A stretch of DNA of 64,000 nt from Candidatus Nomurabacteria bacterium GW2011_GWD2_36_14 (GCA_000991405.1 LBRL01000001.1:456466-520465), one strand, 5' to 3'. Counted from the stretch's first letter, positions 12,758-21,301 are shown. The notes: generated by a model from the letters alone, not told the origin. Numbers and translations: made by a program.

Positions 12758-12826
12758 TTGTGTATAACACAATCAAAATCGCATTGTTATTCTACTAAGG
12801 ATAACAATGCGATTTTTTATTACCCC

Positions 12827-12858
12827 CTTGACATATACCCCCTAGGGGTATATACTCC
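12827..12858 (+). promoter_or_regulatory. CsoR-type operator palindrome embedded in consensus promoter (TTGACA-17-TATACT) upstream of csoR
   Basis: ATATACCCCCTAGGGGTATAT inverted repeat (G/C-tract palindrome typical of CsoR boxes) lying between -35 TTGACA (12828-12833) and -10 TATACT. Confidence 0.65.
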
Positions 12859-12862
12859 CAAT

Positions 12863-13123
12863 ATGAATAACAAACAAAAATTAATACGTCGTTTGAAAAT
12901 TATTGAGGGGCAAGTTAGAGGTTTACAAGAAATGATTGAGAAAGATGTCTATTGTATAGACGTCATTACTCAGACATCTGCTGTGAAGCAAGGACTCTCG
13001 GGAGTAGAAGATGCTCTAATGGAAAGCCACTTAGGAACCTGCCTAGTCCACCAAATTCAAAAAGGTCAAACCAAGAAAGCTACAGAGGAGATATTGAAAG
13101 TTTACGGGCTTAAGAGAAAATAA
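12863..13123 (+). CDS. csoR: CsoR/RcnR-family copper-sensing transcriptional repressor
   Basis: KLIRRLKIIEGQVRGLQEMIEKDVYCIDVITQTSAVKQGLSGVEDALMESHLGTC: DUF156 fold with Cys-x...-His-x3-Cys ligand pattern; longer ORF 12758 start includes the promoter so internal Met chosen. Confidence 0.8.
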   Translation: MNNKQKLIRRLKIIEGQVRGLQEMIEKDVYCIDVITQTSAVKQGLSGVEDALMESHLGTCLVHQIQKGQTKKATEEILKVYGLKRK

Positions 13124-13151
13124 TTTATTAAATTTAAAATAAACAAAATAT

Positions 13152-13712
13152 ATGCAAAAAATTTCAACATATTTATCAGTTTCATTAATAGTTATAGCTT
13201 TTATCATCGGCATAGGAACAGGGTACTCATTTACTCCACAGTATTCCCTATCGATGTATGACAAGAGTGGTATGGACTTGGGTCGTGCAGATAAATGGAT
13301 AGATCTAAGATATATCAATGCAATGATTGCTCACCACCGTGGAGCAATTCTTGTGGCTAAACAAGCAGAAATAAGTCAAAGACCAGAAATTCAAAATTTA
13401 GCAAAAGAAATACAAACAAATGAACCATTGCTAATAGAAGAATTATACCAACAGAAAAAAGACTGGTACGGGGACACAAAAAAAGTGGCAGACCCTGTAG
13501 TTCCTAATTTAGGTAACTATAATGATACTTTTGATTTAAGATTTTTGAATGCAGTTATAGCTCATCATGAAAATGGCATAGAAATGACAAAAGATATCCG
13601 AGTTAAATCAAGTCGAAATGAGGTATTAGACAATGCAAATGCTGTAGAAAAATTCTTAACGGATAGTGGCGCAATGTTAAAAGAATGGAGAAAAAATTGG
13701 TATAACAGTTAA
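13152..13712 (+). CDS. DUF305 family protein (membrane-anchored, two His-His motifs)
   Basis: Duplicated motif YINAMIAHHRGAI / FLNAVIAHHENGI characteristic of DUF305, commonly in copper-resistance contexts. Confidence 0.65.
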   Translation: MQKISTYLSVSLIVIAFIIGIGTGYSFTPQYSLSMYDKSGMDLGRADKWIDLRYINAMIAHHRGAILVAKQAEISQRPEIQNLAKEIQTNEPLLIEELYQQKKDWYGDTKKVADPVVPNLGNYNDTFDLRFLNAVIAHHENGIEMTKDIRVKSSRNEVLDNANAVEKFLTDSGAMLKEWRKNWYNS

Positions 13713-13717
13713 AATAT

Positions 13718-19353: not shown

Positions 19354-19737
19354 ATGAAATTTGATTATACAGTAATTACAACTAAAACTTTTGATGAAGC
19401 AGTCAAAAGTGTAGAAGATGAAATCGCTAAAGCCAGTATGCGTGTCTTGTATATTCATAACGTACAAGAAACTTTAGGTGAAAAAGGTTTTCAAAGAGAA
19501 TCGTTTAAGATTGTAGAATTTTGTAATGCAAAATTTGCTAATGAATTTTTAAACAAAGATATTAAAATTGGACTTTGTTTACCATGCAAAATAAATATTT
19601 ACACCAAAGACGAACAAGTTTTTATTTCTGGAATGCGTCCGATTGTTTTGTCGCAATTCTTCCCACAAGCAGATTTAGGCGAGAGACCAAAAGAAATTGA
19701 CCAAATTATTCAAAACATTATTAATAACGCAAAATAA
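19354..19737 (+). CDS. DUF302 domain protein
   Basis: 127 aa; pattern matches DUF302 small alpha/beta proteins frequent in metal-resistance operons. Confidence 0.5.
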   Translation: MKFDYTVITTKTFDEAVKSVEDEIAKASMRVLYIHNVQETLGEKGFQRESFKIVEFCNAKFANEFLNKDIKIGLCLPCKINIYTKDEQVFISGMRPIVLSQFFPQADLGERPKEIDQIIQNIINNAK

Positions 19738-19768
19738 TTATTTCAATCTATTTAAAAAACATAAAAAA

Positions 19769-19794
19769 TTGACTTATACCCCATAGGGGTATAT
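19769..19794 (+). promoter_or_regulatory. second CsoR-type operator inside consensus promoter TTGACT-17-TATAAT
   Basis: TATACCCC-ATA-GGGGTATA perfect palindrome between TTGACT (19769-19774) and TATAAT (19789-19794), 70 nt upstream of HMA-permease gene. Confidence 0.65.
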
Positions 19795-19865
19795 AATATT
19801 TAAATACAAAAAGTAATTGTAAGGGGTTATTTTTTGTACTAAATTATATATCTAAATAGATTATT

Positions 19866-20897
19866 ATGACTACACAAAATAAAAAATACAAATTTCATGT
19901 TCACGGTATGCACTGTAACTCATGTGTATTATTAACAGAAAGTGAAATAAATGATTTAGAAAATGTAACACATGCCAAATCAAGTCTTAAAAATAATTCT
20001 ATTGAAATAGAGGGTAGCTTTGGAGATAAAACAGTAGAAGAAATTGCAAATGAATTAACTCTAATATTAAAACCTCACGGATACACTTTATCTTTAGAAA
20101 AAGAAACAAAAGACAAGAAGTGGAGTGACTTTAAAATTGCAATACCGATAGCCTTTTTATTTTTAGCGGTATTTATAATCTTGCAAAAAATAGGAATCGT
20201 CAATCTTGTAAACGTATCTAAAGTGTCATATGGTACTTCTTTCGTCATAGGAATCATTGCTTCCCTTTCGACTTGTATGGCAGTAGTTGGAGGACTTGTC
20301 CTCTCCATGTCAGCAACTTTTGCCAAAGAGGGAGACAAGATTAAACCTCAGATATTATTCCACGGAGGAAGACTCGTCTCTTTCTTTATCCTCGGTGGTG
20401 TCATAGGTGCCCTAGGTAGTGTTTTCACTTTAAATACTTCTGCTACATTTATCTTAGGAATAATAATCGGGTTAGTCATGCTTATTATGGGAATAAACCT
20501 TCTTGATATTTTCCATGGAGCCAAGAAGGCTCAAATCAGTATGCCGAAATTCATTTCCAAGAGAGCTTTCGGCATTTCAAAGATAAACCATACTCTGACT
20601 CCACTTCTAGTCGGTATTGCTACATTTTTCCTTCCTTGTGGATTTACTCAATCAATGCAAGTGTACACTCTCTCGACTGGAAGCTTTATGAATGGAGCTC
20701 TTACAATGCTTGCTTTTGCCCTTGGGACACTACCTGTGCTTGCACTTGTAAGCTTTAGCTCATTTAGTATTAAGAATAATAAGAACTCTGGTATCTTTTT
20801 CAAGTCAGCTGGACTTATCGTCGTATTGTTCGCTATAATGAATATCCTAAACAGCTTGGTCATTATAGGATTAATCAAACCAATATTTAATTTTTAA
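19866..20897 (+). CDS. HMA (CopZ-like) domain fused to polytopic membrane permease (DsbD_2/TauE-like)
   Basis: N-terminal YKFHVHGMHCNSC metal-binding fold; C-terminal 8-TM region with STCM and FLPCGF Cys motifs. Confidence 0.55.
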   Translation: MTTQNKKYKFHVHGMHCNSCVLLTESEINDLENVTHAKSSLKNNSIEIEGSFGDKTVEEIANELTLILKPHGYTLSLEKETKDKKWSDFKIAIPIAFLFLAVFIILQKIGIVNLVNVSKVSYGTSFVIGIIASLSTCMAVVGGLVLSMSATFAKEGDKIKPQILFHGGRLVSFFILGGVIGALGSVFTLNTSATFILGIIIGLVMLIMGINLLDIFHGAKKAQISMPKFISKRAFGISKINHTLTPLLVGIATFFLPCGFTQSMQVYTLSTGSFMNGALTMLAFALGTLPVLALVSFSSFSIKNNKNSGIFFKSAGLIVVLFAIMNILNSLVIIGLIKPIFNF

Positions 20898-20899
20898 AT

Positions 20900-21301
20900 A
20901 TGAAAAATACAATCATATCAATAATAATAGCTTCCACTCTTATAATTCTCGCAATTGTTTTTACGAGTGGGAAAAAGAGTACCCCAGAACAAAACATTCA
21001 AAATGAAACTATTGTAAACAATGTCTCTATTGTGGATGGAAAACAAATAATAGAAATAAAAGCAAAAGGTGGATATACTCCAAGAGTAAGTATTGCTAAA
21101 GCTGACACCCCTACCATACTACGATTCAATACAAATGGAACTTTCGATTGCTCTTCTTCGGTCAGAATTCCGAGTATGAACATTTCAAAATTTCTTCCAC
21201 AATCAGGTATCACAGATATCGACCTAGGTATACAAAAAACAGGCACCCTACAAGGCACCTGTGGTATGGGCATGTACCCATTTGAAATCGAATTTCAATA
21301 A
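20900..21301 (+). CDS. cupredoxin-like small copper-binding protein (membrane-anchored)
   Basis: N-terminal anchor; beta-rich; C-terminal ligand-like cluster TCGMGMYPFE with upstream Cys/Ser. Confidence 0.45.
   Translation: MKNTIISIIIASTLIILAIVFTSGKKSTPEQNIQNETIVNNVSIVDGKQIIEIKAKGGYTPRVSIAKADTPTILRFNTNGTFDCSSSVRIPSMNISKFLPQSGITDIDLGIQKTGTLQGTCGMGMYPFEIEFQ

Follow-up and report, generated by a model that had tools for sequence, protein, structure and literature searches.

The 64,000-nt stretch analysed here (the window), from Candidatus Nomurabacteria bacterium GW2011_GWD2_36_14 (GCA_000991405.1 LBRL01000001.1:456466-520465), carries between positions 12758 and 21301 a gene cluster that is very probably a Cu(I)-responsive CsoR regulon in an uncultured bacterium of the Paceibacteria (Patescibacteria, or candidate phyla radiation, CPR). 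The cluster contains two candidate operators, O1 and O2, each embedded in a predicted promoter, P1 and P2. The first stands before csoR and the copper ATPase gene copA, and the second before a pair of genes encoding an HMA-DsbD_2 permease and a cupredoxin-like protein. The window has a G+C content of 35% and its nearest relatives are metagenome-assembled Paceibacteria/Parcubacteria genomes. We know of essentially no regulon that has been defined in the CPR, to which the cluster extends a known copper sensor with an almost unchanged operator. While the switch itself is ordinary, even textbook, it is its association with widely conserved, uncharacterised cysteine-motif proteins that adds value.

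A reading made from the sequence alone (the sequence-only reading) had placed two near-identical palindromes, at 12833 and 19775, exactly inside the 17-nt spacers of two consensus-like promoters (TTGACA/TATACT and TTGACT/TATAAT), and had taken the arrangement as one of CsoR repression. Read directly, both palindromes have exactly these coordinates and sequences, and the hexamers of each promoter agree with the consensus at 11 of 12 positions with 17 nt between them. The sites do occupy the spacers, but the full palindromes extend 1-3 nt into the hexamers. P1 and P2 thus show the hexamers, the 17 +/- 1 nt spacing and the register of a sigma-70-type promoter with a spacer-embedded site, and both are among the three best promoter-like matches within 12000-22000. 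The sites are rare: ATACCCCNNNGGGGTAT, with 2 mismatches allowed, has two occurrences in the 64 kb, both of them with 0 mismatches, against an expectation of 0.10 and with none of 100 shuffles reaching 2, and TACCCC-N1-5-GGGGTA is likewise found twice against 0.01 expected. Using a scoring matrix trained solely on csoR-upstream sites from other genomes, O1 and O2 scored 30-34 bits (O2, 30.0), and the next best site in the window scored 5.8 bits.

Both cores satisfy the definition of a type-2 CsoR operator, for which the Streptomyces consensus is ATATACCCCTNAGGGGTATAT and a 5'-TAC-N9-GTA-3' dyad is needed for binding (PMC3902906). O1 agrees with this consensus at 19 of the 20 specified positions, and its core, TACCCCCTAGGGGTA, is identical to that of the S. 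lividans copZA1 operator (PMC3902906); the core of O2 is TACCCCATAGGGGTA.

To follow the operator beyond the window we used 83 non-redundant related loci (1.23 Mb), fetched with a 322-aa protein of the cluster (p322) as the anchor. The pattern TACCC-N3-7-GGGTA occurs 37 times in these loci, and a perfect site lies within 150 nt 5' of csoR for 28 of 40 csoR genes. Within the same distance upstream, no perfect site was found for copA (0/70), DUF1573 (0/58), the gene for a 259-aa membrane protein, tm259 (0/54), or p322 (0/80). Because these loci had been picked by gene content, we added a metagenome scan with the bare DNA module TTGAC-N3-TACCCC-N3-GGGGTATA, in which gene content played no part in the selection. 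Of the 115 matches with a downstream open reading frame (ORF), 91 had csoR and 10 had copA (101 together) as the earliest gene that could be recognised in the next 200 nt, and a cupredoxin and a DUF1573 gene came first once each; copA lay more than 200 nt downstream in two further loci. The sequence-only reading had named a lack of enrichment of the palindrome upstream of metal genes elsewhere as grounds for its refutation, and given the frequencies at csoR in the relatives and at csoR or copA in the metagenomes this refutation fails.

Ten metagenome loci carried no recognised gene. The first ORFs of seven were scanned and encode DUF4396 proteins (two), an HMA protein, a thioredoxin, a Cys/Met pyridoxal-phosphate (PLP) enzyme, an ArsR regulator and a helix-turn-helix (HTH)-nucleotidyltransferase, a close homologue of which leads an eighth locus; the ORF after the PLP enzyme resembles, by eye, a cysteine synthase. 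Most of the scanned first ORFs are plausible copper or thiol genes. Those at L107, L135, L159, L181 and L191, where the module stands before genes for two DUF4396 membrane proteins, one small HMA protein, the thioredoxin and the Cys/Met PLP enzyme, are possible additional members of CsoR-type regulons in other bacteria.

The 86-aa gene adjacent to O1 is supported as encoding a Cu(I)-sensing CsoR. The closest PDB sequence matches of its product are the CsoRs 4ADZ, 4M1P and 2HH7 (S. lividans, Geobacillus and M. tuberculosis), and on alignment to solved CsoRs residues C31, H56 and C60 fall on the M. tuberculosis Cu(I) ligands C36, H61 and C65, giving the x-C-H-C set. In the same alignment Y30 and E76 occupy the second-shell positions of Tyr35 and Glu81, the residues through which binding of Cu(I) is linked to release from the DNA (PMC8643695). 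A csoR orthologue lacking copper ligands, which would have counted against the sequence-only reading, is not what the gene encodes. The N-terminus, MNNKQK, has no N-terminal His/Pro residue at the 'W' position. A family-wide analysis marks bona fide Cu(I) sensors by the x-C-H-C set, the Tyr/Glu pair and a copA neighbour (PMC8643695), and the neighbourhood in the window agrees, with the order csoR, DUF305, copA and an operator 5' of csoR. The cluster has no free-standing copZ; its HMA domains instead occur as fusions, one in CopA and one in the DsbD_2 permease. Orthology to RicR was rejected, as the best NCBIfam match, the RicR model NF052430, scores 72.9 bits against a cutoff of 175. We also set aside a 121-aa ORF starting from TTG 12758 as a spurious extension through the terminator and promoter, the homologues being 86-95 aa long.

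Table 1. Predicted features of the csoR cluster, numbered from the first nucleotide of the window.
Feature	Position	Strand	Details
Intrinsic terminator	12775..12818	+	19-bp stem then U-run; -23.6 kcal/mol, z = -10.1, 0/200 shuffles as stable
Promoter P1	12828..12856	+	-35 TTGACA 12828-12833; 17-nt spacer TATACCCCCTAGGGGTA; -10 TATACT 12851-12856; 11/12 hexamer match
Operator O1	12833..12853		21-nt palindrome ATATACCCCCTAGGGGTATAT; core TACCCC-N3-GGGGTA (TAC-N9-GTA) 12836-12850; candidate type-2 CsoR site
csoR	12863..13123	+	86 aa; PF02583 (Trns_repr_metal) 3.1e-25, 88.8 bits vs cutoff 22.8
DUF305/CopM-like protein, membrane-anchored	13152..13712	+	PF03713 2.5e-16; NCBIfam CopM 1.5e-11, sub-cutoff
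CopA, P1B-type Cu(I) ATPase	13718..15979	+	Pfam HMA, E1-E2_ATPase, Hydrolase
146-aa membrane protein (tm146)	16008..16448	+	located behind copA in the window as in relatives; L001, L003 and L005 carry syntenic homologues
Hairpin + U5	16447..16510	+	-18.7 kcal/mol, z = -3.3; candidate intrinsic terminator or attenuator
DUF1573 protein, signal-anchored	16547..17047	+	PF07610 1.7e-9; C84-M-C86
259-aa CcdA-like membrane protein (tm259)	17052..17831	+	HPC57; C174-x3-C178 (FPCMGGP)
164-aa soluble helical protein	17836..18330	+	ends ...ADCCNE, C-terminal vicinal Cys pair
322-aa membrane-anchored protein (p322)	18333..19301	+	invariant YRPCCGNS..FPDCNHGMAMLG, H171, H175, two C-terminal GCG motifs
DUF302 protein	19354..19737	+	PF03625 8.3e-16; GLCLPC (CxxC)
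Promoter P2	19769..19797	+	-35 TTGACT 19769-19774; 17-nt spacer TATACCCCATAGGGGTA; -10 TATAAT 19792-19797; 11/12 match
Operator O2	19774..19794		TTATACCCCATAGGGGTATAT; core 19777-19791; palindrome TATACCCCATAGGGGTATA = 19775-19793
HMA-DsbD_2 / UreH-like permease	19866..20897	+	PF13386 4.6e-33, PF00403 3e-7
Cupredoxin_1 protein, signal-anchored	20900..21301	+	PF13473 3.6e-8; motif FDC...CGMGM (Cys/Met, no His)

The architecture of P1 is compact: 38 nt (12828-12865) hold everything from the -35 to the start codon, with the operator and the -10 in between. Because the csoR ATG follows the end of the -10 by only 6 nt, the csoR mRNA is probably leaderless, which would make this promoter a neat illustration, within the Paceibacteria group, of autoregulation in a gene whose message probably has no leader. 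Of the 22 csoR genes that could be scored in the relatives (loci carrying L numbers, such as L001), 16 have their first in-frame start 6-8 nt past the -10 (in L005 it is a GTG), and at least two more have an ATG 6 nt past the -10, just behind an in-frame GTG. The register of the site is conserved as well: a TTGAC-type -35 stands 1-5 nt upstream of the operator (2 nt in about half), a TAnnnT -10 either directly adjoins the operator or shares the final two bases with it, and the spacer measures 16-18 nt, with at least 10 of the 12 hexamer positions matched at 20 of 28 csoR-upstream sites. The strong terminator preceding P1, whose hairpin stops 10 nt short of the -35, closes the preceding gene (12350-12757) and shields P1 from transcription arriving from upstream.

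This fixed register between -35 and -10 upstream of csoR, seen in dozens of species, bears on the possibility that the palindromes act as structural elements at the RNA or DNA level, be it as terminators or as dispersed repeats, with O2 in particular terminating the DUF302 gene. We regard this as extremely improbable. A terminator scan does flag O2 on both strands, with an 8-bp stem, a 3-nt loop and -10.7 kcal/mol as RNA, and the site lies 38 nt past the DUF302 stop codon; however, its hairpin is not above shuffles (z = -1.7) and has no U-tract, for which reasons O2 was rejected as a terminator, and O1 lies downstream of a separate and much stronger terminator. The bases at the centre of the motif are free to vary, as suits a protein site rather than a structural element.

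The genes named in the sequence-only reading (csoR, DUF305, copA, DUF302, HMA with DsbD_2, and Cupredoxin_1) were all recovered by Pfam. Its assignment of csoR-DUF305-copA to P1 is retained for these genes and amended by the addition of the gene for the 146-aa membrane protein, such that P1 would serve at least csoR-DUF305-copA-tm146. From csoR to the last of these, the intergenic gaps are 28, 5 and 28 nt, followed by a 98-nt gap containing the hairpin; the gaps among the next five genes, DUF1573 to DUF302, are 4, 4, 2 and 52 nt. The translated CopA contains GMHCASC in its N-terminal HMA domain together with ACPCALG, IYNIVGIP, MAFSSVS and DKTGT, as is characteristic of P1B-1 ATPases. The DUF305/CopM-like protein consists of two half-domains containing HH, and the 146-aa membrane protein has no Pfam or NCBIfam match.

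The hairpin and U-run behind the 146-aa gene are conserved in sequence in L001 (8121-8185), and no convincing promoter was found between the hairpin and 16547. The hairpin may set differing expression of copA and the downstream Cys-motif genes, with DUF1573 through DUF302 perhaps being reached by partial read-through from P1. Comparative evidence favours co-regulation of the cluster genes: those recognised are all co-directional in 82 of the 83 loci, copA or csoR is within reach in 69, and in Zambryskibacteria (L005-L007) a csoR-copA-...-HMA-DsbD_2-cupredoxin series stands behind a single operator. At L161 (metagenome contig Ga0209542_10020345) an operator-promoter precedes DUF1573, tm259 and a 111-aa protein ending in KDCC, which are followed by csoR-DUF305-copA. 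Because the module directly precedes them there, the DUF1573, CcdA-like and CC genes can be first-line CsoR targets.

The second site stands, as the sequence-only reading had it, just 3' of the DUF302 gene and before an HMA permease and a cupredoxin-like gene, as borne out by Pfam and by position. The sequence-only reading described this module as an operon of unusual Cys-motif proteins, but the pair belongs to known Pfam families and the unusual proteins are encoded upstream of P2. With its HMA domain fused to a DsbD_2 transmembrane (TM) domain, the permease is of the COG2836 type, earlier inferred to be a CsoR target in gut Firmicutes (PMC4938975); the DUF2318 part of some Firmicute members was not detected in the window protein. 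Its HMA motif GMHCNSC and its TM cysteines (STCM and LPCG) are kept in 27-31 of 32 relatives, and CGMGM or CAMGM is present in the cupredoxin-like protein of 25 of 36.

A 68-nt leader separates P2 from the ATG at 19866, and promoter, operator and leader have an orthologous counterpart in L001. Only in the window and in L001, the two loci in which DUF302 lies immediately upstream, does a dedicated operator-promoter precede the HMA-DsbD_2 gene (1 of 32 relatives); in the other loci the pair stands behind p322 or copA and lacks a dedicated operator, the gap being 0-100 nt in about half (17), and as a rule it simply belongs to the csoR operon. Given this restriction to the window and L001, we read P2 as an internal promoter particular to the lineage, best seen as one that would keep the pair under CsoR after interruption of the operon. 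L001 itself carries three promoters with an operator in the spacer, one each ahead of csoR, SHOCT-DUF302 and HMA-DsbD_2, including sites at 14750-14764 and 15470-15484. A plasmid search with the HMA-DsbD_2 protein gave three weak, uninformative matches, the best of which, from Acetoanaerobium, is a 490-aa HMA-DsbD_2-like gene ahead of a 752-aa ORF of P-type ATPase size, with no TACCC..GGGTA site.

That the pair lacks its own operator in 31 of 32 relatives would also suit an arrangement in which P1 is the sole copper switch, the pair is expressed mainly by read-through of a long csoR-led transcript, and O2 is a roadblock or a vestigial duplicate. No strong terminator was found within 16547-19737, which is in keeping with such a transcript. 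Against this stand the quality of P2, with its 11/12 match, perfect TATAAT and 17-nt spacer, and its conservation with L001, which has two internal promoters of this kind; moreover, the 128-nt gap between DUF302 and the permease gene and the hairpin at 16447-16510 weigh against one uninterrupted transcript. We therefore judge P1 very unlikely to be the only switch and favour P2 as an independent promoter.

Several points weigh against the reading of the cluster as a Cu(I)-responsive CsoR regulon. Promoter-like hexamer pairs are not enriched in this AT-rich region (45 found, 43 expected from shuffles), so the hexamers by themselves are insufficient and the significance of P1 and P2 rests on operator coupling and conservation. 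The alpha-1 helix of CsoR does not have the RLXR DNA-contact motif; it has R10-L-K-I13 (12890-12901) with an extra Arg at position 9, and in S. lividans CsoR the R57A substitution, at the second Arg of RLXR, left no binding detectable by isothermal titration calorimetry (PMC3902906). RLK[ILV] is frequent among Paceibacteria CsoRs, with the extra Arg preceding it, and may represent a shifted DNA contact; because the operator is conserved, we argue that DNA binding is retained. P2 recurs in 1 of 32 relatives, and its function rests on that one orthologue and on the quality of the site. The hairpin and U-run after 16448 stand between the P1 unit and the genes from DUF1573 through DUF302. Finally, the same type of operator is used by the persulfide sensor CstR, which has Cys at positions X and Z and no His at Y, as illustrated by the S. 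mitis cst operator, ATATACCCTTATGGGGTATAT (PMC8643695).

This last point raises the alternative that the regulator is a CstR-like persulfide sensor or another non-copper sensor, and that the Cys-rich cluster is a reactive-sulfur or thiol-stress regulon that includes copA. The many genes for Cys-motif and CcdA-like proteins, joined in L001 by Redoxin, would accord with such a regulon, as would the metagenome loci in which the module precedes a thioredoxin, or a Cys/Met PLP enzyme and cysteine-synthase-like ORF. The site alone cannot separate CsoR from CstR, and therefore the His ligand and the copA context decide. H56 with Y30 and E76 makes up the allosteric network of a Cu(I) sensor, the invariable partner is a CopA with HMA domains, and profile searches found no rhodanese, persulfide dioxygenase or sulfide:quinone reductase (SQR) gene in the cluster. 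A CstR identity was rejected given H56 in the window protein, and we consider a non-copper regulon of this kind very unlikely. CsoR repression, as put forward in the sequence-only reading, draws support from the ligand set, the operator class and conservation.

For a CsoR regulon of this type we envisage that apo-CsoR, probably as a tetramer and with two tetramers per site as in Streptomyces, would bind O1 and O2 with their TAC-N9-GTA cores and C/G tracts. As each operator fills a promoter spacer, the bound repressor would exclude RNA polymerase. Binding of Cu(I) to C31, H56 and C60 would release CsoR and allow P1 and P2 to fire. P1 would be autoregulated, yielding CsoR, the DUF305/CopM-like envelope protein, the CopA pump and the 146-aa membrane protein, with some transcription continuing past the hairpin into the DUF1573, CcdA-like, CC-tailed, 322-aa and DUF302 genes, and P2 would independently drive the permease and the Cys/Met cupredoxin-like protein. 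The accessory proteins might then contribute Cu(I) binding in the envelope and a Cys relay.

The genes between copA and P2 encode proteins united by cysteine motifs. Selenoprotein variants of DUF1573 carry UGC at the CxC motif (PMC9312934). The 259-aa protein has homologues that, among the best 120 database hits, are always 259 aa long and 78-100% identical, and these are called CcdA by PGAP and JGI; the HPC and FPCMGGP motifs are invariant among its homologues. It has no Pfam match even at E<=10, its NCBIfam match to ArsG (1.4e-5) is far below the cutoff, a DsbD_TM protein is matched by BLASTP at E = 0.048, and its AlphaFold2 (AF2) model, with a predicted local distance difference test (pLDDT) score of 53, is too poor to use. 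The following 164-aa protein has no family match, and the vicinal Cys pair at its C-terminus is all that is conserved in it. An ORF between the CcdA-like and 322-aa genes ends in a vicinal Cys pair in 42 of the 43 relatives that have such an ORF, on two unrelated scaffolds: soluble proteins of 162-186 aa ending in ...KLA[DN]CC.E and membrane-anchored proteins of 107-171 aa ending in ...KMK.CC.

The 322-aa family is very large, with at least 7760 database homologues, and it matched species-representative genomes in at least 568 stretches. Its members are 60-70% identical across candidate phyla, and those with names among the best 120 are all Patescibacteria. No Pfam family, PDB sequence match or convincing fold match was found for the protein, whose AF2 model has a pLDDT of 69. 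We rejected its identity as a CcmH thiol-oxidoreductase, a family defined by a three-helix fold with an (L)RCxxC motif and by PF03918. The L001 homologue is 71% identical to that of the window, and in L001 a DsbD_TM and Redoxin pair is inserted between p322 and the internal promoters; thiol-redox genes thus appear to recur in this copper cluster. DUF302 adjoins copA in several relatives, with the CxxC kept in 10 of 13. We tentatively suggest, as a possibility of somewhat less than even standing, that genes between copA and P2, those for DUF1573, the 259-aa protein, the CC-tailed protein and the 322-aa protein, form an undescribed, Paceibacteria-wide, copper-linked Cys relay across the membrane, in which a cytoplasmic CC tail, a TM Cys pair and outward CC/CxC proteins would pass Cu(I) or reducing equivalents and act with CopA under CsoR. 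In the literature on DUF1573, DUF302, COG2836 or Patescibacteria in combination with copper or CsoR we found no description of the cluster. The CsoR/CopA neighbourhood gives a first testable context, namely copper or thiol stress in the envelope, for abundant and highly conserved Patescibacteria hypotheticals, including the 322-aa family, the 259-aa CcdA-like proteins, the CC-tailed proteins and DUF302.

Among characterised systems, S. lividans CsoR is close in design. Its csoR, copZA1 and copZA2 operators are of the same 21-nt pseudopalindrome class, and like the window protein it is an autoregulated x-C-H-C sensor with several operators per genome. In contrast, the window comes from a CPR host of about 35% G+C, has RLKI in place of RLXR and no separate CopZ, and its csoR is probably leaderless with the operator exactly in the promoter spacer. 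The RicR regulon of M. tuberculosis resembles the window in having several promoters under a TACCC...GGGTA palindrome. This multi-promoter CsoR-family regulon, in which the promoter of ricR itself carries TACCCCGCTGGGTA, includes the membrane-associated LpqS, the putative permease Rv2963 and RicR (PMC3944814). The M. tuberculosis cso operon has the order csoR-Rv0968-ctpV-Rv0970. Unlike the RicR regulon, the window has no metallothionein, multicopper oxidase or socAB, and its CopA shares an operon with the regulator; with a score far below the model cutoff, the window CsoR is not a RicR orthologue.

The meta-regulon that CsoR controls in gut Firmicutes (Hobbs et al. 2016, PMC4938975) shares with the window a csoR and copA core, the absence of CopZ and the presence of COG2836 targets. 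Dual sites at fixed spacings were typical of that meta-regulon, whereas the window has a single site per promoter, and the Paceibacteria cluster adds DUF1573, the CcdA-like and CC-tailed proteins, the 322-aa family, DUF302 and Cupredoxin_1. Many of the metagenome loci with the -35 plus operator module came from gut samples. CstR of Staphylococcus and Streptococcus has the same fold and nearly the same operator but lacks the His and regulates sulfurtransferase/persulfide genes, whereas in the window protein the His/Tyr/Glu network is present and the regulated gene would be copA.

No + strand operon terminator was seen after the cupredoxin gene, 3' of which lies a convergent beta-CASP gene (21326-22711, - strand). 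A terminator-like hairpin with T5 for the latter is located on the - strand at 21239-21262, inside the 3' end of the cupredoxin ORF in the codons of the conserved motif TLQGTCGMGM. The region upstream of the cluster (10073-12757) contains a tmRNA (10073-10465), an AbiV/HEPN-like ORF (10925-11539; PF18728 2.7e-7) together with two ORFs that match no family; on the corresponding side of its cluster, L001 has smpB. Further upstream, two divergent tRNA-Ser genes occupy 2954-3224, one of which (3137-3224; Rfam tRNA, 56 bits) is read by ARAGORN with the unusual anticodon ACT.

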